Source: a candidate division TM6 bacterium UASB124 (lineage in GTDB: Bacteria; Babelota; Babeliae; Babelales; RVW-14). From it: a DNA stretch of 64,000 nt. Where the stretch lies: assembly GCA_945897315.1 (NCBI GenBank), contig CAMDFF010000001.1, positions 21,262 through 85,261 of the forward strand, given 5' to 3'. Shown in pieces: positions 8,571-51,325 of this stretch. Below the pieces are notes generated by a model. It was not told the DNA's origin. It ran no database searches and saw nothing but the letters and a program-made list of their open reading frames with translations. The first letter of the stretch is position 1, and each line of letters opens with the position of its first letter. The translations under genes and the position numbers were made by a program.

Positions 8571-8647
8571 GGGCGAATAGCTCAGTTGGTTAGAGCATCT
8601 GCCTTACAAGCAGGGGGTCACAGGTTCGAATCCTGTTTCGCCCACCA
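8571..8647 (+). tRNA. tRNA-Val (anticodon UAC), CCA encoded
   Basis: Hand-folded cloverleaf: acceptor GGGCGAA/TTCGCCC, D arm GCTC-AGTTGGTTA-GAGC, anticodon stem TCTGC/GCAGG with loop CTTACAA, T arm ACAGG-TTCGAAT-CCTGT, 3' ACCA. Confidence 0.95.
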
Positions 8648-8735: not shown

Positions 8736-8811
8736 TCCCCGATAGCTCAGTTGGTAGAGCAAACGACTGTTAATCGTTTTGTCGCAGGTTCGAATCCTGC
8801 TCGGGGAGCCA
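8736..8811 (+). tRNA. tRNA-Asn (anticodon GUU), CCA encoded
   Basis: Acceptor TCCCCGA/TCGGGGA, D arm GCTC-AGTTGGTA-GAGC, anticodon stem AACGA/TCGTT with loop CTGTTAA, T arm GCAGG-TTCGAAT-CCTGC, 3' GCCA. Confidence 0.95.
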
Positions 8812-21340: not shown

Positions 21341-21743
21341 GGGGGCGTAATGGTCTCGACGTTTTATGGTAAGCGAGGAGAGCATGCCAAGGTTGCAGAA
21401 GCCCTTGTAAATCAAGTCTGTAGAAACATAAATGCAAATCATATTGCACCTGCTTTTGGAGGTGTCTTCGGACACAACCAAGCAGTAGCTTGTGCATAGT
21501 ATCTTTCAATAGATAGTGTATAAGCTCTTGGGCAACAGCGTGTTTATCAGCTGTTGCACTCGTATAACTTGATAAAACGACTATGTGTAGATTTTTTTGT
21601 TCTGTAAGCATAGGCGTAACACTGAACCGGCTCAGACCTCAGGGTGCTCTTGTCCAAGGGTTTGAGTATAATCAAGAGATAAGCATGTAGCGCTTTTCGT
21701 GAATTGTTTAACGGACATGGGTTCGATTCCCATCGCCTCCACC
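21341..21743 (+). ncRNA. ssrA: tmRNA (SsrA)
   Basis: The 5' end GGGGGCGTAATGGTCTCGACG pairs with the 3' acceptor CGCCTCC-A-CCA, including a G3:U wobble (alanine identity). The 3' end is tRNA-like (GGACATGGGTTCGATTCCCAT-CGCCTCCACCA). An internal tag frame at 21434-21499 reads GCA AAT CAT ... GCA TAG = ANHIAPAFGGVFGHNQAVACA*. Confidence 0.9.
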
Positions 21744-21824
21744 AGTCTTCGCTCTGTGTGTTAATGCTTTTAGCTGTAACCACTCTATGAGCGACCCACC
21801 AAACCACCACTCCGAAACAAAAAG

Positions 21825-28001: not shown

Positions 28002-29198
28002 TTAGCCAAGAATACCTGAAATTATTGTTTTAATCTCAGACGCATTCTTCATGCCTGTCACCACAAGATTAATGAGCAGCGTAGCAATAACCACTTCTTT
28101 GATGTAATTAAATCCCCAAAAAACATATGCGGCGTTGGCTAGAGAAAGTACAATTAAGGCCGGATAACAAATAACTACTAGTGGCTCCATCACAGCCTCA
28201 ATGCCACTAAACCCAAGATTGGTCATAGCAAAATTCATAGCTACTGTAATCATCAAAGCGTGTATATATTTTATACGGGCGCCACACAACTCGCTAGCCA
28301 GATACTCCGCAAAAACTGTAGTTAGTGCTATCGCCGTTGAAAGACACGCAACGACGGTGGTAATATTTGCTAAAATACTTGCAGGCGCGCCAAGCACCTC
28401 AGCAGCAAGAGCGCTGAGCAATTGTCTTTTTTCTATAAACGCTATCGCTAGCCCATGCTGCGCAGCAACCACACTAAAGCCAATATATACCAAGCCAAGC
28501 AGTGAACCACCAATCACGCCAGCCTTAAGGCCATAGAGAGCAACAGCTGCTTGATCACCCTGCTCTTCTGGTTTCATACTTGCTCTAATCGAGCGAACAA
28601 TAAGAGCAGAAAAGAAAATTGTCGCTATCAAATCAAGCGTTAAATAGCCATCCGTAAAGCCTCTGGTAAAAGCTGTTCCGCTGTCCAAGACTGTTGTAAG
28701 TGGTGCAGCGGTAGCGAAGAGACCACATATAATAATAAGAAATAGGAGGGCTAATTTAATTGGACCAAAAACTTTTCCCATTAACTCAACGACCATGCTG
28801 CGCCGCATGGTAGCAAAAAAGATTAGCACAGCAGTAACCACGCTAAATATAAACAGAGAGATCGCCGGTACATGCCAATGGACCGCGCCGTGCGCCAAGG
28901 TAATACACCGCGGCGTCGCGCCTAATGGCCCAAGCAATAACATGCATATAAATGCTATGATCATCCCTGGCCAACGACCAGCCATTCCTAAAAATCTTTT
29001 GTAGTCGCCATTAAACAGTGCTGCTGAAATAAGGCCAATCAGAGGAACTAATACTCCTGTGACAATAAACCCTGCAACTGCAAACAACACCATGCTGCCC
29101 GCATCACGACCAAGACAAAGGGGATATACAACGCTACCTGCACCAAAGAGCATTGCAAAAATAGCCAGGCCCAACTGGACTAAGCGAAAAGGCTGCAT
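28002..29198 (-). CDS. brnQ: Branched-chain amino acid transport system II carrier (LIVCS family), copy B
   Basis: 398 aa, about 12 TM helices, N-terminal FAMLFGAGSVVYPLCLG motif typical of BrnQ. Near-identical length and sequence to the adjacent copy. Confidence 0.85.
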   Translation of the reverse strand: MQPFRLVQLGLAIFAMLFGAGSVVYPLCLGRDAGSMVLFAVAGFIVTGVLVPLIGLISAALFNGDYKRFLGMAGRWPGMIIAFICMLLLGPLGATPRCITLAHGAVHWHVPAISLFIFSVVTAVLIFFATMRRSMVVELMGKVFGPIKLALLFLIIICGLFATAAPLTTVLDSGTAFTRGFTDGYLTLDLIATIFFSALIVRSIRASMKPEEQGDQAAVALYGLKAGVIGGSLLGLVYIGFSVVAAQHGLAIAFIEKRQLLSALAAEVLGAPASILANITTVVACLSTAIALTTVFAEYLASELCGARIKYIHALMITVAMNFAMTNLGFSGIEAVMEPLVVICYPALIVLSLANAAYVFWGFNYIKEVVIATLLINLVVTGMKNASEIKTIISGILG

Positions 29199-29234: not shown

Positions 29235-30431
29235 TTAGCCAAGCAGTGCAGCAAGCATTGTTTTAATCTCAGGCGCATGCTTCATGCCAGTCACCACAAG
29301 ATTAATGAGCAGCGTGCCAATAACTACTTCTTTAATATAGTTAAAGCGCCAAAAAACATGTGCAGCATTTGCCAGAGAAAGAACGATCAGCGCAGGATAA
29401 CAAACAACTACTAATGGCTCCATCACATGAGCAAGACCACTAAAGCCTAAGTTTGTCATCGCCAGATTCATTACTACTGTTACAACAAGTGCATGAATAT
29501 ATTTAATGCGGCCACCAAATAATTCACTAGCCATATATTCCGCAAACACTGCAGTCAATGCTATCGCCGTTGAAAGACATGCGATCGTTGTAGTAATATT
29601 GGCCAAGATGCTAGCACGAGCACCAAGCACCATCTCTGCAAGCGCGCTCAGAAGCTCTGTTTTATCTACAAACTCAAGTGCTATTCCATGCTTAGCCGCA
29701 GCAAAACTAAATCCGACATAAACAAGTCCAAGTAGCGAACCACCAATCACCCCAGCCTTGAGACCATACCAAGCGATAGCCGCTTGATCATCACGCTCTT
29801 CTGGCTTCATACTTGTCCGGATAGAACGAATGATAAGCGCAGAGAAGAATATCGTACCGATCAAATCAAGCGTCAAATACCCATCTGCAAATCCACGTGC
29901 AAATGCGGTACTACCCGTCAATACAGTTGTCAATGGCGCCGCTGTTGCAAGCAACCCGAGAGTAATAATAATAAAAAGCAAAACTAATTTAATAGGGCCA
30001 AAGACCTTGCCCATAAGCTCAACAACCATGCTCCGACGAATAGTAGAAAAAAATATCAGAACCGCAGTGATCAAACTAAAAACAAACAGAGATATAGTGG
30101 GTAAATGCCAATGCACAGCACCATGAGCCAATGTAATACACCGTGGCGTGGCGCCTAACGGCCCCAGAAGCAACATACATATAAATGCAATGATCATACC
30201 TGGCCAACGACCAGCCATGCCTAAGAATTTTTTATAATCACCGTTAAACAGTGCGGCCGAGACAAGACCAATAAGCGGCACTACAACACCAGTAATGATA
30301 AAGCCAATAACAGCAAACATTACCATACTCCCGGCATCGCGGCCAAGACAGAGGGGGTAAACGACATTGCCCGCACCAAATAGCATTGCAAATATTGCAA
30401 GCCCTAATTGGATCAAACGAGATGTTTGCAT
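29235..30431 (-). CDS. brnQ: Branched-chain amino acid transport system II carrier (LIVCS family), copy A
   Basis: 398 aa, FAMLFGAGNVVYPLCLG. Colinear with and highly similar to 28002-29198. Confidence 0.85.
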   Translation of the reverse strand: MQTSRLIQLGLAIFAMLFGAGNVVYPLCLGRDAGSMVMFAVIGFIITGVVVPLIGLVSAALFNGDYKKFLGMAGRWPGMIIAFICMLLLGPLGATPRCITLAHGAVHWHLPTISLFVFSLITAVLIFFSTIRRSMVVELMGKVFGPIKLVLLFIIITLGLLATAAPLTTVLTGSTAFARGFADGYLTLDLIGTIFFSALIIRSIRTSMKPEERDDQAAIAWYGLKAGVIGGSLLGLVYVGFSFAAAKHGIALEFVDKTELLSALAEMVLGARASILANITTTIACLSTAIALTAVFAEYMASELFGGRIKYIHALVVTVVMNLAMTNLGFSGLAHVMEPLVVVCYPALIVLSLANAAHVFWRFNYIKEVVIGTLLINLVVTGMKHAPEIKTMLAALLG

Positions 30432-30733: not shown

Positions 30734-32377
<1,644 letters not shown>

Positions 32378-32392
32378 CTAGTGATTGATTGG

Positions 32393-32689
32393 TTACTGGT
32401 TAACAACAGCCAAAAGCTCGTCTTCACGCAATACCAAAAATTCATCGCTACCAACTTTAATTTCTGTGCCAGCGTATTTGCCGAACACAACTTTATCGCC
32501 ATGCTTAACGCTTAGCCCGCGAAGTGAACCATCGTTCAATAATTTGCCTTCGCCAGCAGCAACAACAGCACCCATTTGGGTTTTTTCTTGTGCTGTATCA
32601 GGGATAATAATGCCCCCTGCTGAAACTTGTTCGCTCTCAAGGCGTTTTACCAATACGCGGTCGTATAAAGGTCTGATTGAAGATGTCAT
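32393..32689 (-). CDS. groES: Co-chaperonin GroES (Cpn10)
   Basis: 98 aa, IRPLYDRVLVKRLE...GGIIIPDTAQEK. Lies 30 nt upstream of groEL. Confidence 0.95.
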   Translation of the reverse strand: MTSSIRPLYDRVLVKRLESEQVSAGGIIIPDTAQEKTQMGAVVAAGEGKLLNDGSLRGLSVKHGDKVVFGKYAGTEIKVGSDEFLVLREDELLAVVNQ

Positions 32690-32949
32690 AAAAATCCTCC
32701 GAACAATGTATTTTATTTTATAGGTTTTGTGCGGTAGTCTGAAATCAGCCAGTCCTCACATTTTTGTCTACATTTTAAGTCTATTTTCAGTTTACAGCCT
32801 TCACGTAAAAATGCAACCGACTTCTGATAGCAACAGACTAAGATATTATCAACCACCGCACGCATAGTTTGAATGTCGACAAAAGACGATTTGGTCGTGT
32901 TTTACAACATATTTTACCCAGAAATCATTTACCCCTAGGACTTTTTTTA

Positions 32950-34113
32950 ATGATTAAAAACAAACTGATTTATATGCGAGCCGCCCTAGCAATATTCCTC
33001 TTGCCCGCCAGCAGCTCACTGTGCACCGCCACCGCCTCCGCAAAAGATAAAAACTCTGACAAAATAGCCAGCACCTGGAGAGAAACAAAGCAACGCCTCC
33101 CGTTATTTGTGCGATTCCCATCTCTTGCCGAAAAAATCGCCTATATGCCTCTTGGCCTCTTGCCAACACCACTAGACAATTGCGCTGCGCTAGCACAAAA
33201 GTTGCAAACTGAAACTCTCTTGATCAAGCGCGATGATCTTTCTGGTGAGCTTTTCGGGGGCAACAAAGTGCGAAAACTGGAATTTTTGCTGAGCGAAGCC
33301 TGCGCGCGCGGCGCTGAGCACGTAGTGACCTGGGGCACGCCAGGGTCGCCACACACCACGGCAACGGCAATTTATTGCCACAATTTAAAACTCCCCTGCA
33401 CGTGCATGTACCTACCCAGCCCAAAACTATCCGTAAATGAGCACAACGCGCAGCTCACGAAAGCACATCAGGCAATAGAAGAGACTTATCGCGGATTTGG
33501 CCACCGCGAACAAGCTCTCTACAAGAAGAACAAAGAGTTTCGCGAGCAAACTGGAAAATCTCTGTATTTTATTCCCGAGGGCGGCTCTGACGTGCTCGGT
33601 GCACTCGGCTTCGTCAATGCAGTGTGCGAACTTACGGAACAACTAAAAGCACAACAGGCGCCCTTTCCTGATTACATTTATTTGCTTTCTGGTAGCTCTG
33701 GCTCTGCTGCTGGTTTTCTTGCGGGCCTTGATTTGTTACACATCAAAACAACGCCTGTTATTGTTGCGCTTGCACCGGACAAATACCCACATCAACAGCA
33801 AGACAAAATAGAAAAGCTGTACGCTGAAATAATGGCATATGTGATGCACTTGGATCTAAGAATTCACACATGCAAAACACCGCAAAACACTGTTTTATAC
33901 AATCATGGCTTTTCTCGCGCAAGCGATAACCAGCTGCAAGCTACGGCAATCACAACACAGGACTTGTGTAAGAAAATCACTAGCTATTCTCTCGATCCTA
34001 TTTTCAGCACAAGACTCTGGACGGCTTTTTTGCTAGACTGCAATGCTGAATTATTACAGAATAAGCGCGTTCTTTTGTGGAATACAGGGTCATTGACCAC
34101 TATTAAAAATTAG
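32950..34113 (+). CDS. Signal-peptide-bearing PLP enzyme of the ACC deaminase / D-cysteine desulfhydrase family (paralog 1)
   Basis: Family-defining PLP-lysine motif FGGNKVRKLEFLLSEA, EGGSDVLGALGFV and SGSSGSAAGFLAGL. N-terminus MIKNKLIYMRAALAIFLLPASSSLCTATASA. The ORF track starts at an upstream TTG (32869). Confidence 0.7.
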   Translation: MIKNKLIYMRAALAIFLLPASSSLCTATASAKDKNSDKIASTWRETKQRLPLFVRFPSLAEKIAYMPLGLLPTPLDNCAALAQKLQTETLLIKRDDLSGELFGGNKVRKLEFLLSEACARGAEHVVTWGTPGSPHTTATAIYCHNLKLPCTCMYLPSPKLSVNEHNAQLTKAHQAIEETYRGFGHREQALYKKNKEFREQTGKSLYFIPEGGSDVLGALGFVNAVCELTEQLKAQQAPFPDYIYLLSGSSGSAAGFLAGLDLLHIKTTPVIVALAPDKYPHQQQDKIEKLYAEIMAYVMHLDLRIHTCKTPQNTVLYNHGFSRASDNQLQATAITTQDLCKKITSYSLDPIFSTRLWTAFLLDCNAELLQNKRVLLWNTGSLTTIKN

Positions 34114-34123
34114 GGGATTTAAT

Positions 34124-35287
34124 ATGAAATTATTTCGTTTTTTATTATTGCTCACGCTTGTAAGCACTGTGCACTTGTGCGACGCCACATCATTGTTTCG
34201 CGCATATCCAGCGCTCAAAGAAACTGTTCCCCATGTCTCACTTTGTTCCCCTTCAACCCCGGTAAGAAAGCTCTCGCTCTTCGCATCTTGGCCAGAGGCC
34301 CCAGAAATTTATGTCAAAGACGATAACTGGAGCACGAGCACTTTTGCAGGCAACAAACCTCGCAAACTTGAATTTTTACTCGCTGATGCAAAAGCAAAAG
34401 GATGCGCACACATTGTGACTTCTGGGTCAACTGGTTCAAACTTTGGTTGTGCCACTGCCGTTTTTGCAAAGAAGCTAGGGTTTGCATCGTGCACATGCAT
34501 TTACTCACCACAGATCAATACTAAATATTTACAACGCAATGCATTATGGGCAACGCTCGCAGGAGCTCAATTTGTATTTTGCAAGGATCGTGACGAGCGA
34601 CAAGAGCAGTGCGAAAAAGCCCTTACTTGTGCATCAAGCCGACGTACAAAAACATATTATATTCCTAGTGGCGGATCCAATGCTCTTGGGTCGTTAGGAT
34701 TTGTAAATGCAGCGTTTGAACTCAAAGCACAAATTGACGCAGGCACGCTTCCAGCCCCTGATGAAATATTTCTTACCTTTGGTTCTGGTGGCAGCGTATC
34801 TGGCTTGCTCCTTGGCCTCAAGGCAGCAGGATTGCCGTGTCGCGTGATCACGACATGTGTTGTTAGCGACCCAGACAAAACGGCCTATGATGACATCAAA
34901 AAACTGTTTGACCAAACCAACGATTTATTACAAGACAGCGACCCTTCATTCCCTCGTTTTGCATTAACCAGAGAAGACGTAACCGTTGACCACGACCATT
35001 ATTACGGGGAATACGCACAAATGAACGAGCAAGAATCTCGCGCAATTAGTTACTTACACGCATTAGACGGCATTAAGACCGATGGCACCTACGCAGGAAA
35101 AACACTAGTCACCCTTTTTCATTGGATTCCACGGCTTGCAGGTAAAAAAATCCTCTTTTGGAATACGTTTTGCAGTGGCAACCCAATGGAACAATTTTAT
35201 GATAAATACACCACACTACTAGCACCTGAGTGGCACCCATATTTTGATGGTACCATCCCACTACAAACGCTCGATCAAGGTCTATAA
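34124..35287 (+). CDS. Signal-peptide-bearing PLP enzyme of the ACC deaminase / D-cysteine desulfhydrase family (paralog 2)
   Basis: FAGNKPRKLEFLLADA, SGGSNALGSLGFVNAA and FGSGGSVSGLLLGL. N-terminus MKLFRFLLLLTLVSTVHLCDA. Confidence 0.7.
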   Translation: MKLFRFLLLLTLVSTVHLCDATSLFRAYPALKETVPHVSLCSPSTPVRKLSLFASWPEAPEIYVKDDNWSTSTFAGNKPRKLEFLLADAKAKGCAHIVTSGSTGSNFGCATAVFAKKLGFASCTCIYSPQINTKYLQRNALWATLAGAQFVFCKDRDERQEQCEKALTCASSRRTKTYYIPSGGSNALGSLGFVNAAFELKAQIDAGTLPAPDEIFLTFGSGGSVSGLLLGLKAAGLPCRVITTCVVSDPDKTAYDDIKKLFDQTNDLLQDSDPSFPRFALTREDVTVDHDHYYGEYAQMNEQESRAISYLHALDGIKTDGTYAGKTLVTLFHWIPRLAGKKILFWNTFCSGNPMEQFYDKYTTLLAPEWHPYFDGTIPLQTLDQGL

Positions 35288-35291
35288 AGAC

Positions 35292-36143
35292 ATGACAACG
35301 CAACTAATCGGCTCACACGTGTCTGGCGCAGGCGGGCTGCATAACGCAATCGAGCGCGGTACTTCCATTGGTGCCACCGCTATACAAATTTTCACCAAAA
35401 GCAATCGGCAGTGGTTTGAAAAAAACATTACTGACGCCGACGCTGATTTATTTAAAAAAGCATGGGCTATTTCTCCCATAAAAGAAGTGGTGGTGCATGC
35501 GGCATATTTGATCAATCTTGGCTCTGCAAATGCCGATGTCGCAACAAAATCAATCAAAGCCCTTGCTGACGAAATTAATCGTTGCGCACAGCTTGGCATC
35601 AAATATTTAGTACTTCATCCTGGATCACATTTGGGCGCTGGCGTCGAGCCATGCTTAGCGCAAATTGCGCGCAATCTCGACACTGTTTTTGAATCATGCT
35701 CACCAGGTGTGATGGTACTACTTGAGACCATGGCGGGGCAAGGAACCAATGTCGGTTTCAGATTTGAGCATCTTGCACACGTGCGCGCTTTAACAGCGCA
35801 TAAAAATCGCGTTGGCGCTTGTCTTGATACATGCCACGTATTTTGTGCGGGATATGACATCAGCACGAACGAAGGCTGGGATGCGATGGTCACAAACATC
35901 GATACCTCCATCGGACTAGAAAATGTAAAGGCTATTCACGTCAACGATTCGCAAACAGCGTGTGCTTCAAACAAAGATCGCCACGCTCCTCTCGGTGAAG
36001 GCTTAATTCCACTGAATACTTTTAAACACATGATGCTTGATGCAAGACTAGCGCACATACCAAAGATCTTAGAAACCCCCTCTGATCCAGCCATGGCATT
36101 ATGGGCTAAAGAGATCGCGTTACTCAAAACATTTGTGCGGTAG
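35292..36143 (+). CDS. nfo: Endonuclease IV (AP endonuclease, Nfo family)
   Basis: IGSHVSGAGG, VVHAAYLINL, LVLHPGSH, CLDTCH and IHVNDS...DRHAPLGEG. Start at the ATG at 35292, just after the upstream stop (the ORF track starts at 35244). Confidence 0.9.
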   Translation: MTTQLIGSHVSGAGGLHNAIERGTSIGATAIQIFTKSNRQWFEKNITDADADLFKKAWAISPIKEVVVHAAYLINLGSANADVATKSIKALADEINRCAQLGIKYLVLHPGSHLGAGVEPCLAQIARNLDTVFESCSPGVMVLLETMAGQGTNVGFRFEHLAHVRALTAHKNRVGACLDTCHVFCAGYDISTNEGWDAMVTNIDTSIGLENVKAIHVNDSQTACASNKDRHAPLGEGLIPLNTFKHMMLDARLAHIPKILETPSDPAMALWAKEIALLKTFVR

Positions 36144-36166: not shown

Positions 36167-37051
36167 ATGCGATTATATATTTTAGTTGGTATACTTACGC
36201 TTTCTGGCTGTTCATTTTTTAAGCAAAAACAAGAACCGGTGCCTACTGTGAAAACATTACTCAACGAATTTACTCTTTATAAACTCGACAATCAAAAGCG
36301 CCTCCACGCGGGTGATTTATACGAGCACTCGCTCTGGACACACTATGCCGCAACAGGCCTCATCGAAGACAACAGCCCTTGGTCCACAGGCTTTGATTTT
36401 TCGCAACGCGACAAAGAGCTTTTAAGCCTTGCAGCCCTGTTGCACGATGTTGGCAAAGCAGGTCGAGGAGATCTTTTTGATGGCACACACGCAACCTTGA
36501 AATACCGCCTAGCAATTGATCAAGCGGGAACACCAACAAAAATTACTTACACCAGCGACCATGAAGAACATGTGCTTATTGGATTTGATTATTTGAGTGG
36601 GCTATGGGCACCGCTCGAACAAGGCCGCCAATTTATCTCTTCGCGCAGCATGCCAATTGCCATTCAGCCACTTTTTACACAGCTTAATGTCTCGCTCGAA
36701 GAGCAAAAGCTCGTTGCCATTCTAGTCGGCATGCACTACTCCTTTGGTAGAATTCTACGCGGCGATATGACTTTTGATGATTTTTTGAATGAACTTAAGC
36801 AGTACGCACGCTTTGTAGATTATCAGCCCATTGATGAGAAATTATTGCGATTATCAGTGCTTGTGCAAGTTGCTGATGTAACAGGCATGAGTTACGTTAA
36901 ACCACGGCCAACATGGGTAATACCATCACCAGACGAATGTCCTGTTGCGCATCACAATGTGCCATCAGCCTATGAGCGCTTTGGTTATAACACCAACAGA
37001 CCATTAACAGTTTTTAAAGAATTATTGGCATACTTCAGCATACAAAAATAA
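36167..37051 (+). CDS. Lipoprotein with an HD (metal-dependent phosphohydrolase) domain
   Basis: Lipobox LTLSGC at residues 11-16. H...HD motif (HSLWTH ... LAALLHDVGKAG). Confidence 0.55.
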   Translation: MRLYILVGILTLSGCSFFKQKQEPVPTVKTLLNEFTLYKLDNQKRLHAGDLYEHSLWTHYAATGLIEDNSPWSTGFDFSQRDKELLSLAALLHDVGKAGRGDLFDGTHATLKYRLAIDQAGTPTKITYTSDHEEHVLIGFDYLSGLWAPLEQGRQFISSRSMPIAIQPLFTQLNVSLEEQKLVAILVGMHYSFGRILRGDMTFDDFLNELKQYARFVDYQPIDEKLLRLSVLVQVADVTGMSYVKPRPTWVIPSPDECPVAHHNVPSAYERFGYNTNRPLTVFKELLAYFSIQK

Positions 37052-38447: not shown

Positions 38448-39461
38448 ATGAATTTTTTTAGATTTTTAAGTATTATTTTCTTGCTCAGCTCATGCTGCCC
38501 ATTAATGCCCATGGCCCCAGAAGCAACACCACCAGAAAGCTCTGTAGAAAAACAAATCAGGCGCAATCAAGCCGTTATCAAGTGCCTCAAAACATCTGGC
38601 CTTTTGCGTGAAATTTATTCTTATTTGCCTGTGCAAGATCAACGAACCTTTGCTCGCACTTCAAAAGAAAATTTCAAAGCTGAGTTACATTTTTTAAAAG
38701 AAAAAATAATCCTGCCTTTCATACCAGGCAAAACGCCAAAACAAATCAACAAAGTCAAATCCTTTCTGGCTCATTTGCTGTTTATTGGCTGTAATATTCC
38801 GCATACAACGATAGATGAAAAGGGTGAATATCATGTGCCTGCAATTGTTGCTGAGTGTGCATGTCAAGAGACAGCCAGATCTATGCCAACTACTCAAGCA
38901 GAGTTAGACAAAATGCTACGTAAGCCTAGCGTCACAAACTGTCCCGAATTTCGCGTTCTCAATGCTCTCAACCATGGAGCAAACCCCAACATACGTAGCA
39001 AATGGGGCGCCCCCATTCTTTATAGCACCACTTCTGCAGCAGCTGATTATCCGATGATTTTGCTTGCGTATGGCGCCAATCCAAACTTACAGGATAAAGA
39101 TTATTCCCCAAGAACTGCGCTTCATTCCGCAATAGTAAATCGCGATAGATTCGTATTATTTCTTAATTATGGAGCAGATGTTGAAACACGTTGTCCTCAA
39201 ACGGGTCGTTCTATCCTGCATGATGTTTGCCAACTGGAATTAGAATCTTATATTTTAAATAAAGCTGTACTTTTAGAGCACGCAACCGAGCTCATCAAGC
39301 GTGGGGCACGTGCTCGCTCAGACATGCTCTCACCTCGTAACTCATCTGAAATGAGAAGCTTAATTCTTAATGCTGTAGCACGACAAGAAGCTAATGCCGC
39401 TGTTGCTCTCGGTCCCGTTGTTAACGGAGGAGCTGGTGGCGGAATAGGCGATGTCGATTAG
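38448..39461 (+). CDS. Ankyrin-repeat protein with a signal peptide and an F-box-like segment
   Basis: N-terminus MNFFRFLSIIFLLSSCCPLMPMA. F-box-like LLREIYSYLPVQDQRTFARTSKENF. At least three ankyrin repeats (LNHGANPNIRSKWGAPILY, LLAYGANPNLQDKDYSPRTALHSAIV, LNYGADVETRCPQTGRSILHDV). Confidence 0.8.
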   Translation: MNFFRFLSIIFLLSSCCPLMPMAPEATPPESSVEKQIRRNQAVIKCLKTSGLLREIYSYLPVQDQRTFARTSKENFKAELHFLKEKIILPFIPGKTPKQINKVKSFLAHLLFIGCNIPHTTIDEKGEYHVPAIVAECACQETARSMPTTQAELDKMLRKPSVTNCPEFRVLNALNHGANPNIRSKWGAPILYSTTSAAADYPMILLAYGANPNLQDKDYSPRTALHSAIVNRDRFVLFLNYGADVETRCPQTGRSILHDVCQLELESYILNKAVLLEHATELIKRGARARSDMLSPRNSSEMRSLILNAVARQEANAAVALGPVVNGGAGGGIGDVD

Positions 39462-43971: not shown

Positions 43972-44172
43972 TGTATTTTAACCTTTGTCGCTAGACGGCT
44001 TTTTTACGAAAGCCACATGAATATAGAAATGTTTCTTAAGTATCAAATTTTTGAATAACCATCAGTCTACTGCTTTTCCCAAAAAAGTGAAGCATTCCTC
44101 CAGAGTTGCCATACATCTATCATTGACTATCAGGCAATAGTCTCTTCCTGTGAAAAAGTTATCCACAACGCC

Positions 44173-44217
44173 TATTATTATTACTCTATAATATTATATT
44201 AATTATAATACTAATAA
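44173..44217. other. AT-rich tract (candidate DNA unwinding element) bracketed by inverted DnaA boxes
   Basis: tattattattactctataatattatattaattataatactaataa contains only 3 C and no G. It begins with a TAT TAT TAT TAC trinucleotide run, 5 nt (acgcc) after the box at 44159-44167. Confidence 0.55.
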
Positions 44218-44295
44218 GGGGCGCGTTTTTTGTGGATAACTTTGTTTTTTTTCGCTCTATCTATCGATCCAATCGGCCTAAGCAGGACAAAAAAA

Positions 44296-44340
44296 CTTGT
44301 GGATAACTTGTGGATAACTTGTTGATAACTTGTGGATAAC
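44296..44340. repeat. Four tandem 11-bp repeats, each containing a DnaA box (TGTGGATAA orientation)
   Basis: cttgtggataa cttgtggataa cttgttgataa cttgtggataa c, with an exact 11-bp period. Confidence 0.9.
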
Positions 44341-44436
44341 TTTTCACTAGCCAGTGAAACACTGATCCAGTCGGCTATTTGAAGTAAAAAATGCAGGATA
44401 GTTAGACCTAATAGGTTTTTACAATATTATGATAAA

Positions 44437-44481
44437 AGTTATTAACAAGTTATCAACAAGTTATCCACAAGTTATCCACAA
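44437..44481. repeat. Four tandem 11-bp repeats, each containing a DnaA box (TTATCCACA orientation); inverted copy of 44296-44340
   Basis: agttattaaca agttatcaaca agttatccaca agttatccaca a. Its reverse complement differs from the first array at only two bases, in the outermost box. Confidence 0.9.
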
Positions 44482-50338: not shown

Positions 50339-51325
50339 ATGGCTATCAGGAATAAATTTAAAACCATATTGGGTAGCATTGGCAATACGCCACTCATGCG
50401 TTTGGAGTTTGATGTAAAGCCAACAATTTTAGCGAAGCTTGAAATGTTGAACCCTGGTGGCAGCTTAAAAGACCGTACAGCGTTGCACATGGTGGAAGTT
50501 GCTGAGCGCGCTGGCAAACTTAAGCCTGGCGGTACTATTGTTGAAGCAAGCTCTGGTAGTCAGGGTATTTCGCTAGCTATGGTTGGCAAGGTCAAAGGCT
50601 ATCGCGTTATTATCACCGTTCCTGACCGTACAGCATCAGAAAAAGTTGCGGTGCTACGTGCGTATGGTGCAGAGGTGTATGTTTGTCCAAATACCGACAG
50701 GCACGATGACCCACGCAACTACCATACATTTGCAGAACATTTAGCCCGTACGATTCCTGGTGCATTTATGCCAGACCAATACTTCAACAAAGAGAACCCT
50801 CGCGCACACTATTTGAGCACGGGCCCAGAAATTTGGGCACAGACAGAAGGTAAAATTACCCATTTTGTGTGTGGTGCTGGTAGTTGCGGTATGATTTCTG
50901 GCGCAGGCCGATATCTCAAGGATCAAAATCCTGTCGTAAAAGTAATTGGTGTTGATGCAGCGACATCAATGTACTCAGCAAAAGATCCAAAAGCGTATGC
51001 TGTTGAGGGTTTGGGAATAGATGTTATTAGTGATACTTTCGATGTAACAGCCTTTGATGTGATGGTGCCCATTTCTGATGCGGATGCATTTTCTATGACA
51101 AAACGCTTAGCAATGGACCATGGTTTGTTAGTGGGAATTAGCACTGGTGCTGTTATGCATGTGGCCCTTGATCAGGCAAAAAATTTGACTGAAGATGATG
51201 TGATGGTAGTTATTTTTGGTGATTCGGGTCGCAACTACCTCAGCAAGATTTTTGCAGATGAAGTTAAAAATATAAAACATGTTGAAGCAGCGCTTGCGCA
51301 TGGTGTCGTTACCATGCCTGAGTAA
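50339..51325 (+). CDS. Cysteine synthase / cystathionine beta-synthase-family PLP enzyme (CysK-like)
   Basis: GNTPLMRL, PLP-lysine context LNPGGSLKDR and EASSGSQGISLA. ATG at 50339 after AAGGA (the ORF track starts at the GTG at 50315). Confidence 0.85.
   Translation: MAIRNKFKTILGSIGNTPLMRLEFDVKPTILAKLEMLNPGGSLKDRTALHMVEVAERAGKLKPGGTIVEASSGSQGISLAMVGKVKGYRVIITVPDRTASEKVAVLRAYGAEVYVCPNTDRHDDPRNYHTFAEHLARTIPGAFMPDQYFNKENPRAHYLSTGPEIWAQTEGKITHFVCGAGSCGMISGAGRYLKDQNPVVKVIGVDAATSMYSAKDPKAYAVEGLGIDVISDTFDVTAFDVMVPISDADAFSMTKRLAMDHGLLVGISTGAVMHVALDQAKNLTEDDVMVVIFGDSGRNYLSKIFADEVKNIKHVEAALAHGVVTMPE

Follow-up and report, generated by a model that had tools for sequence, protein, structure and literature searches.

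A tandem pair of D-cysteine desulfhydrase-like proteins with predicted export signals in a Dependentiae genome

Two adjoining open reading frames, ORF1 and ORF2, were analysed in a 64,000-nucleotide stretch of DNA (the window) from candidate division TM6 bacterium UASB124 (assembly GCA_945897315.1, contig CAMDFF010000001.1, positions 21,262 to 85,261). Both encode proteins of the pyridoxal 5'-phosphate (PLP)-dependent superfamily that contains D-cysteine desulfhydrase (DcyD) and the deaminase of 1-aminocyclopropane-1-carboxylate (ACC), AcdS. We consider it likely that ORF1 and ORF2, in a genome of Babeliales-like Dependentiae, are coupled in translation, and that their products are exported by the general secretory (Sec) pathway and fall within an uncharacterised clade of that superfamily. 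A familiar enzyme fold would then be found in an unusual compartment, a previously undescribed relocalisation that is well supported by comparison of homologues. A first-pass annotation of the window had singled out this pair; both members were located on the plus strand where it had placed them, and its observation was borne out in every detail. Few PLP enzymes work outside the cytoplasm, and for the DcyD/ACC deaminase family export has not been reported in any member. Through this locus a large exported branch becomes accessible, with its centre in the Dependentiae, a little-known group of intracellular parasites.

Fold and family of the paired proteins

ORF1 and ORF2 each encode 387 residues, are arranged in tandem, and are separated by 10 nucleotides. 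Both matched the Pfam family PALP (PF00291), with 74.6 bits for ORF1 and 89.6 bits for ORF2 against a gathering score of 35, and they shared 31% identity across 348 aligned columns. Each carries the PLP-lysine motif (GGNKVRKLEFLL in ORF1, AGNKPRKLEFLL in ORF2), with the lysine column invariant, and the glycine-rich phosphate loop (GSSGSAAG and GSGGSVSG, respectively) that had been noticed on first inspection. The closest solved relatives by sequence were the D-cysteine desulfhydrases of Salmonella and Pectobacterium and an ACC deaminase homologue of Pyrococcus (expectation (E) values of about 1e-20 to 1e-25). AlphaFold models of the mature parts had predicted local distance difference test (pLDDT) scores of 95.0 for ORF1 and 95.7 for ORF2, the latter with a predicted template-modelling score of 0.94. 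When these models were compared with solved structures in Foldseek, D-cysteine desulfhydrases headed both lists: 7ysl and 4d9e for ORF1 (template-modelling (TM) scores 0.71-0.79) and 7ysl, 7ysk, and 4d8t for ORF2 (TM 0.75-0.85). Foldseek E values were 1e-24 to 1e-25 and TM scores 0.71-0.85 overall, and DcyD structures ranked ahead of ACC deaminases such as 1rqx. The Pfam, Protein Data Bank, and Foldseek matches, together with the mutual identity of 31%, agree with the initial description of two tandem, divergent proteins of the DcyD/ACC deaminase fold.

The top NCBIfam matches of both ORFs were CuyA, TIGR01275 (ACC_deam_rel), XcbE, DcyD, and AcdS, all of them two- to eight-fold under the curated cut-offs. 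TIGR01275 gave 142.9 and 149.0 bits (cut-off 289.4); the DcyD equivalogs NF003029, NF003030, and NF003032 (cut-offs 429-610 bits) gave 77-102 bits for ORF1 and 105-131 bits for ORF2; and TIGR01274 (AcdS; cut-off 392 bits) gave 71.9 and 97.7 bits. The best models for both ORFs, at 135-154 bits, were those of CuyA (D-cysteate sulfo-lyase, NF052482) and XcbE (coenzyme M biosynthesis, NF052537), but these scores are far under cut-offs of 450 bits, both known enzymes are cytoplasmic, and no sulfonate-pathway genes were found in the neighbourhoods of the relatives examined. Naming a function from the CuyA, XcbE, DcyD, or AcdS equivalog was dropped, since every score was far too low. Because the score cut-offs were not reached and the residue comparisons described below were negative, the window proteins are assigned structurally to the DcyD/ACC deaminase superfamily and are not equivalogs of DcyD, AcdS, CuyA, or XcbE; they form part of a separate, unnamed clade outside the TIGR01275 subfamily. 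Their family comprised 638 proteins at E <= 1e-30 in a library of 50%-identity representatives, and no characterised member was found for it.

Predicted export signals and their history

The N-termini of both ORFs show the Sec-type pattern for which they were checked heuristically (a positive n-region, 7-15 uncharged hydrophobic residues as a core, and small side chains at -3 and -1). In ORF1, the n-region has a charge of +3, the uncharged core is 14 residues long, and A-S-A occupies positions -3 to -1; in ORF2, the charge is +2, the core 13 residues, and CDA stands at the putative cleavage site. The pattern was kept in orthologues of both. A hand-written rule applied to single sequences was also positive for both ORFs, but it was positive for 27 of the 48 ORFs of the window, some of them clearly cytoplasmic, and was discarded as evidence. 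Since such a rule did not discriminate, the case for export was built on the comparison of homologues.

Alignments to Protein Data Bank homologues began at residues 31-36 of ORF2 and 61-71 of ORF1, and in a tblastn search of 80 species genomes most of the matches listed started at ORF2 residue 23-24, the predicted mature end. Homologue N-termini were of two kinds: some started directly (M-I-P-L-F-x-x-Y-P) at the first conserved motif of the domain, PLF.AYP, and others had an extension before it. Sorting homologues by this extension, as the first-pass annotation had suggested, gave 102 of 227 without one, 98 with a hydrophobic one (defined by an 8-residue hydrophobicity peak >= 2.2), and 27 with a non-hydrophobic one. 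A wider set that included 50%-identity representatives contained 142 proteins with no extension, 132 with a Sec-like, 11 with a lipobox-like, and 2 with a twin-arginine translocation (Tat)-like N-terminus, and 48 others. On a neighbour-joining tree rooted with Salmonella DcyD, signal-bearing and signal-less homologues formed two nearly clean blocks; the trait required 9 Fitch parsimony changes, as compared to a mean of 66.7 and a minimum of 53 in 500 shuffles. The signals of ORF2 orthologues have drifted in sequence and kept their pattern (MKLFRYGLLFTVFILRFCNA followed by ASLF, MKTLHYFLLLIAVAAHTGNA followed by ASLF, MMLRQLFLLPLLIASLCKA followed by GSLF), with a conserved C/G-x-A site before (A/G)SLF. 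Cleavage at this site would restore, to within one or two residues, the N-terminus of the cytoplasmic relatives. Signal-like N-termini were likewise present in 10 of 10 ORF1 orthologues. The conserved pattern, the partition of the tree, and the conservation of the starts all indicate that the hydrophobic segments, taken for signal peptides from the outset, are genuine, and both proteins are very probably exported.

Two other types of signal were rejected. A Tat signal (S/T-R-R-x-F-L-K before the core) would need an arginine pair, which neither chosen N-terminus has; KRRF occurs in a longer, TTG-started version of ORF1, about 35 residues ahead of the core. The sequences SSLC in ORF1 and VHLC in ORF2 do not fit a lipobox ([LVI][ASTVI][GAS]C), and the cysteines near the cleavage sites are not conserved in orthologues, one of which (P0007) has glycine.

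The choice of start codon bears directly on these predictions. Public gene calls begin ORF1 at ATG 32974. We prefer the ATG at 32950 because the orthologue P0128 starts MIKKTRTFLHLALAII (MIKKTRTF..., matching MIKNKLIY... of ORF1) and because the AGGA motif and T-rich spacer match those of locus L084. The longer version from TTG 32869 was rejected; it lacks a ribosome-binding motif, and orthologues begin at the equivalent of 32950. The more serious objection, raised in the first-pass annotation, is that the hydrophobic N-termini are untranslated and both genes encode ordinary cytoplasmic enzymes begun at internal codons near the PLF motif. An in-frame TTG does lie at codon 24 of ORF2, exactly at the start of the domain, an in-frame GTG directly follows the PLF motif of ORF1, and about 40% of the family are cytoplasmic proteins beginning at that point. 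These internal codons are not conserved, however (the first 90 codons of L085 lack any, as does the region near the boundary in L084), and the objection therefore fails. An upstream ATG, with AGGAG, AAGGA, or AGGGGA at normal spacing before the signal-coding part, is kept in all four genomes compared (the window, L084, L085, and L086); the upstream frame is open, hydrophobic, and furnished with a C/G-x-A site in orthologues down to 45% identity; and the presence of a signal tracks phylogeny. We give wrong starts hardly any credence. Uncleaved signal anchors, which would hold the enzymes at the inner membrane so that the catalytic domain lay in the periplasm, are improbable to a lesser degree. 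Cleavage of both signals is only predicted, and in ORF1 and many relatives a linker of 20-50 residues follows the hydrophobic segment, as it often does in tethered proteins; against anchoring, the uncharged cores, at 13-14 residues, fall short of a usual membrane span, that of ORF1 contains a proline, and the small -3/-1 residues (ASA, CDA) are conserved among orthologues. The linker of ORF1 was helical and about 20 residues long in the AlphaFold model. Many signal-bearing relatives (P0284, P0328, P0350, P0290) have an extra 40-50 residues between signal and enzyme domain, with a recurring DDWI.ELN, which looks like a small N-terminal module.

The distribution of the signals follows the Dependentiae. 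The GroEL encoded in the window shares 94% identity with its counterpart on the contig of P0007, a protein named for a Candidatus Dependentiae bacterium, and 85% with that of locus L006, from a Babeliales genome. Among the matches listed in the scan of species genomes, signals were present in five of six Dependentiae/Babeliales/Vermiphilus loci and in almost no other phylum, and the taxon-labelled signal-bearing forms were mostly Dependentiae/Babeliales; the family occurred without extensions in Chloroflexota, Deltaproteobacteria, Hydrogenedentota, Asgard and other archaea, and elsewhere. With at least 130 protein clusters of the exported branch in the sample examined, the pair is one case of a large branch and not an oddity of this genome. 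Signal sequences have been reported on 44% of the coding sequences of Chromulinavorax, a cultured member of the phylum (PMC6561590), which makes an exported pair less surprising; homologues occur in Chromulinavorax as well as in Vermiphilus and Babela.

The gene order around the pair allows its age to be placed relative to export. The arrangement groEL-groES, in the opposite orientation to the two PALP genes, nfo, and an HD-domain gene, recurred on four other contigs, with proteins 43-73% identical to those of the window; on one of the four, a NUDIX gene was inserted between the PALP copies. In L005 and L006 a single PALP gene lies between groES and nfo, and its product has a signal, the canonical active site, and the C-terminal tail described below. 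Because this single copy in the same slot already bears a signal, the predicted export is older than the duplication that gave rise to ORF1 and ORF2. L005 (CAZLQB010000013.1) is titled 'uncultured Pseudomonadota bacterium'; this label is probably wrong, since L005 shares the synteny and its GroEL and that of the window are 80% identical. Some family members unlike Dependentiae sequences (P0369, P0271, P0319, and P0362) carry Tat motifs (SRRVFLT in P0369, TRRDFLN in P0271) or lipoboxes (AAPAC, LGGC). Export of this kind of enzyme seems, from these motifs, to have arisen more than once and by different routes, which in some cases would be the one anticipated when cofactor loading precedes export.

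In the literature searched, no DcyD or ACC deaminase was described as exported, periplasmic, or signal-bearing, and no paper linked Dependentiae with a desulfhydrase; the earlier remark that characterised members of the family are all cytoplasmic stands. A partial parallel is BsrV, the broad-spectrum amino-acid racemase of Vibrio cholerae, which is described as PLP-dependent, periplasmic, and active on D-amino acids linked to the cell wall, and which provides a precedent for PLP chemistry outside the cytoplasm. It is a racemase and not a lyase, and it has no sequence relationship to the window proteins; its fold is of the alanine racemase type.

Active sites and possible function

Active-site positions were numbered after Salmonella DcyD (Lys51, Gln77, Ser78, Asn79, His80, Tyr261, Tyr287, Thr288, and Thr315), with roles taken from PMC3344862. 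In that enzyme, reported as a dimer, the two tyrosines provide the phenolate that removes the alpha-proton of D-substrates, the Ser-Asn pair binds the carboxylate, Thr315 contacts the pyridine nitrogen, and positions 77, 80, and 288 influence specificity; the substitution Y287F abolished activity on every substrate (PMC3344862). DcyD itself differs from the family consensus (KGSNHYYTT) only in Gln77.

The DcyD structures (Salmonella 4D8T and Pectobacterium 7YSK; Enzyme Commission number 4.4.1.15) share with the window proteins the fold-type II PLP fold (TM 0.75-0.85) as well as the Asn-Lys motif for PLP; identity amounts to no more than 22-30%, and DcyD is cytoplasmic, whereas the window proteins have predicted N-terminal export signals. 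Neither ORF has the full DcyD set (Lys51, Gln77, Ser78, His80, Tyr261, Tyr287, Thr288, and Thr315). ORF2 retains Lys51, Ser78, Asn79, Tyr261, Tyr287, and Thr315 but has Gly77, Phe80, and Ala288, and it ends in a C-terminal extension of about 38 residues, typical of its family clade, absent from DcyD and AcdS, and lost in ORF1. ORF1 retains Lys51, Ser78, Thr315, and the phosphate loop; it has Gly77 and Pro79, and Asp261 and Phe287 replace both tyrosines. AcdS (Pseudomonas 1RQX/1TZ2, Hansenula 1F2D) belongs to the same superfamily and fold, and ORF2 has equivalents of its lysine, Ser78, and Tyr294; unlike AcdS, the window proteins have Ala or Ser at the position of Glu295, and Thr at that of Leu322 (Thr315 of DcyD). 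Alignment to DcyD and AcdS, which had been proposed as a guide to the substrate, thus places ORF2 nearer the DcyD set and finds the AcdS determinants absent from both proteins. ACC deamination, one of the activities first suggested, is unlikely, given these absences and AcdS model scores of less than 100 bits. The proteins should not be annotated as ACC deaminases, and the label D-cysteine desulfhydrase is unproven.

Beta-elimination by both proteins had also been suggested. For ORF2 the suggestion is tenable, most of the catalytic residues of DcyD being kept, and the most economical reading of its predicted active site is that a small amino acid, probably a D-amino acid, undergoes alpha,beta-elimination as in DcyD; the substrate of DcyD cannot be transferred to it, because positions 77, 80, and 288 differ and the scores are far under every NCBIfam cut-off. 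For ORF1 it is doubtful, in view of Asp326 and Phe352 and of the inactivity of the Y287F variant of Salmonella DcyD (PMC3344862). The divergence of ORF1 is shared by its clade: of ORF1 and nine orthologues, all ten lack Tyr261, half (ORF1 among them) have Phe at Tyr287, and all lack the C-terminal tail. Identities were 73, 71, 60, 53, and 43% between ORF1 and its orthologues and 64, 62, 62, 50, and 45% between ORF2 and its partners on the same contigs; from genome to genome the two are equally well conserved. ORF1 has been maintained as a protein, with a catalysis predicted to be altered or lost.

The only functional link found for the exported clade is a fusion protein. P0136 (Candidatus Babeliales; 6001-7659 of L002/L003) combines a signal peptide, a DcyD-like PLP domain, and a VanX-type D-Ala-D-Ala dipeptidase domain (PF01427, 126.9 bits), with HNRGCAVDL and EWWHF, which we take to be the VanX-type zinc-site motifs. 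The fusion hints that some exported members are tied to D-amino acids or cell-wall peptides in the periplasm, that is, to the parasite's own envelope. In the seven signal-bearing loci only groEL, groES, and nfo recurred; a penicillin-binding protein and a beta-lactamase-fold protein appeared once each, too thin a record to use.

Sequences and models show the fold, the residues, the conserved signals, the gene order, and the split of the tree; export and cleavage themselves, the compartment, PLP loading, and the substrate are inferred. The proposed order of events is as follows: the precursors would cross the inner membrane unfolded through the Sec pathway, signal peptidase I would trim off some 31 residues of ORF1 and some 21 of ORF2, and the mature proteins would reach their fold only outside the cytoplasm, in the periplasm most probably and perhaps farther out. 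PLP would be bound at Lys106 of ORF1 and Lys78 of ORF2. In ORF2, a tyrosine phenolate would most likely take the alpha-proton of a small (probably D-) amino acid, and alpha,beta-elimination would yield a keto acid and ammonia, with or without H2S. ORF1, the older-looking and equally conserved copy, would have a different chemistry or be a non-catalytic partner of ORF2, because both tyrosines and the C-terminal tail are lost. Active enzymes would mean that a parasite with almost no metabolism of its own breaks down amino acids, possibly D-amino acids or with release of H2S, in its periplasm or in the host compartment. PLP would have to be delivered across the inner membrane, the export of an apo-enzyme by Sec implying a further route for its supply, and the pair would illustrate cleanly how, in nature, adding a signal peptide has relocated an enzyme family.

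Where the proteins act, and whether ORF1 is an enzyme, admit of other answers. They might leave the bacterium altogether, through an outer-membrane secretin or in vesicles, and act on host amino acids, for example by breaking down the cysteine or serine of the host, with H2S, ammonia, or pyruvate set free beside its mitochondria. The Dependentiae live as parasites inside cells and have outer-membrane vesicles and a very large predicted secretome (PMC6561590), and signal-bearing ankyrin proteins are encoded nearby in the window; yet no sequence feature specifies passage of the outer membrane, the VanX-type fusion and the penicillin-binding and beta-lactamase-like neighbours in two loci point to the bacterial envelope, and lipobox- or Tat-bearing exported relatives occur also among sequences unlike Dependentiae. 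We regard a host-directed role as rather unlikely. ORF1 could, with a somewhat better though still minor chance, be a catalytically dead pseudoenzyme serving ORF2 as heterodimer partner in a structural or regulatory role. Its Asp and Phe in place of the two tyrosines, the absence of Tyr261 throughout its clade and of Tyr287 in half of it, a conservation equal to that of ORF2, its constant position beside ORF2, and the inactivity of Y287F in a DcyD that is a dimer (PMC3344862) all speak for this; the retention of the PLP lysine, Ser78, Thr315, and the phosphate loop speaks against it, since ORF1 might still bind PLP and use lysine as the base on L-substrates. A natural fusion bears on the same point. 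P0230 (761 residues) consists of two complete family domains, each with the C-terminal tail, arranged head to tail behind one hydrophobic N-terminus, which hints that paralogues of the family act as pairs; together with the dimeric state of Salmonella DcyD, it makes a heterodimer of the paralogues plausible.

Several considerations weigh against the reading of the pair as Sec-exported members of an unrecognised clade. The case for export rests on the comparison of sequences. A Sec-type signal on a cofactor enzyme means that PLP must be acquired outside the cytoplasm. Where DcyD has Gln77, His80, and Thr288, ORF2 has Gly, Phe, and Ala, and it scores far below every curated NCBIfam cut-off. Gene context does not help: the operon partner nfo encodes a cytoplasmic DNA-repair enzyme, so the operon is uninformative, and the neighbourhoods of 73 cytoplasmic relatives (130 flanking proteins, 157 Pfam families, the commonest, Pyr_redox_2, occurring only 7 times) gave no functional clue. 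As to novelty, signal peptides are very common in Dependentiae, and nothing indicates a new mechanism. We offer only tentatively the broader idea that Dependentiae, and a few lineages independently with lipoprotein or Tat signals, moved a whole DcyD-like lyase clade outside the cytoplasm as an extracytoplasmic amino-acid-degrading module, acting on cell-wall D-amino acids, as the VanX-type fusion suggests, or on host cysteine or serine, with the tyrosine-less ORF1-type paralogue as its dedicated partner subunit.

The locus and other features of the window

The features of the pair are collected in Table 1.

Table 1. Features of the ORF1-ORF2 pair, in window coordinates; signatures follow the DcyD positions listed in the text.
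Feature	Position	Strand	Detail or basis
ORF1, predicted exported DcyD-like PLP-fold protein, divergent upstream paralogue	32950..34113	+	PALP 74.6 bits; AlphaFold; signal-like N-termini in orthologues
ORF2, predicted exported DcyD-like PLP enzyme, near-complete DcyD catalytic set	34124..35287	+	PALP 89.6 bits; AlphaFold; signature KGSNFYYAT
AGGA ribosome-binding motif, 9 nucleotides 5' of ORF1 ATG at 32950	32937..32940	+	AGGAG and T-rich spacer before orthologous ATG in L084, L085
AGGGGA ribosome-binding motif of ORF2, overlapping ORF1 stop TAG (34111-34113)	34112..34117	+	Equal spacing of AGGAG/AAGGA in L084, L085, L086
ORF1 signal peptide (predicted), residues 1-31, MIKNKLIYMRAALAIFLLPASSSLCTATASA; predicted cleavage after ASA, then KDK	32950..33042	+	+3 n-region, core, ASA, alignment offset
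ORF2 signal peptide (predicted), residues 1-21, MKLFRFLLLLTLVSTVHLCDA; predicted cleavage leaving TSLFRAYP	34124..34186	+	Orthologue pattern, tblastn starts, starts of cytoplasmic relatives
ORF1 Lys106, PLP Schiff-base lysine (Lys51 of Salmonella DcyD)	33265..33267	+	GGNKVRKLEF; invariant column
ORF1 Asp326, in place of Tyr261	33925..33927	+	
ORF1 Phe352, at catalytic Tyr287 position	34003..34005	+	Signature KGSPHDFST
ORF2 Lys78, PLP Schiff-base lysine	34355..34357	+	AGNKPRKLEF; invariant column
ORF2 Tyr297, equivalent of Tyr261	35012..35014	+	Alignment to Salmonella DcyD; column invariant in alignment A2
ORF2 Tyr323, equivalent of catalytic Tyr287	35090..35092	+	Alignment to Salmonella DcyD; column invariant in alignment A2
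ORF2 C-terminal extension, about 38 residues, FCSG...LAPEWHPYFDGTIPLQTLDQGL	35171..35284	+	Alignment; two helices in AlphaFold, pLDDT 89-97
Family consensus signature			K G S N H Y Y T T
ORF2 signature			K G S N F Y Y A T
ORF1 signature			K G S P H D F S T

Upstream of ORF1, groES and groEL (30734-32689) lie on the opposite strand; downstream of ORF2, nfo (endonuclease IV, 35292-36143) begins five bases past the stop codon. The HD-domain protein that follows nfo (36167-37051; Pfam HD 27.6 bits) has a lipoprotein-type signal, MRLYILVGILTLSGC, and its gene was always downstream of the two PALP genes and nfo on related contigs; it appears, from this predicted signal, to be a second exported enzyme of a normally cytoplasmic type. 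Adjoining groEL, on the minus strand, are two tandem paralogues of the branched-chain amino-acid transporter BrnQ (28002-29198 and 29235-30431; Branch_AA_trans 209 and 213 bits), and related contigs have one copy at the equivalent position. A third gene of the PALP fold (50339-51325; 237 bits) encodes a CysK/cystathionine beta-synthase-like protein without a signal, and its product is of the ordinary cytoplasmic kind. The N-terminus of an ankyrin-repeat protein (38448-39461), MNFFRFLSIIFLLSSCC, is hydrophobic and lipobox-like, as is typical for the effectors predicted in Dependentiae.

Flanked by a nusA-like gene on one side and the gene of a signal-bearing NlpC/P60 protein on the other, seven perfect and three one-mismatch DnaA boxes (TTATCCACA) were observed in both orientations at 44159-44480. 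The cluster coincides exactly with the minimum of the cumulative GC skew near 44 kb and is probably the chromosomal replication origin; no dnaA gene was seen adjoining it. RNA genes of the window were a transfer-messenger RNA gene at 21341-21744 (145.6 bits) and transfer RNA genes at 8571-8644 and 8736-8808.

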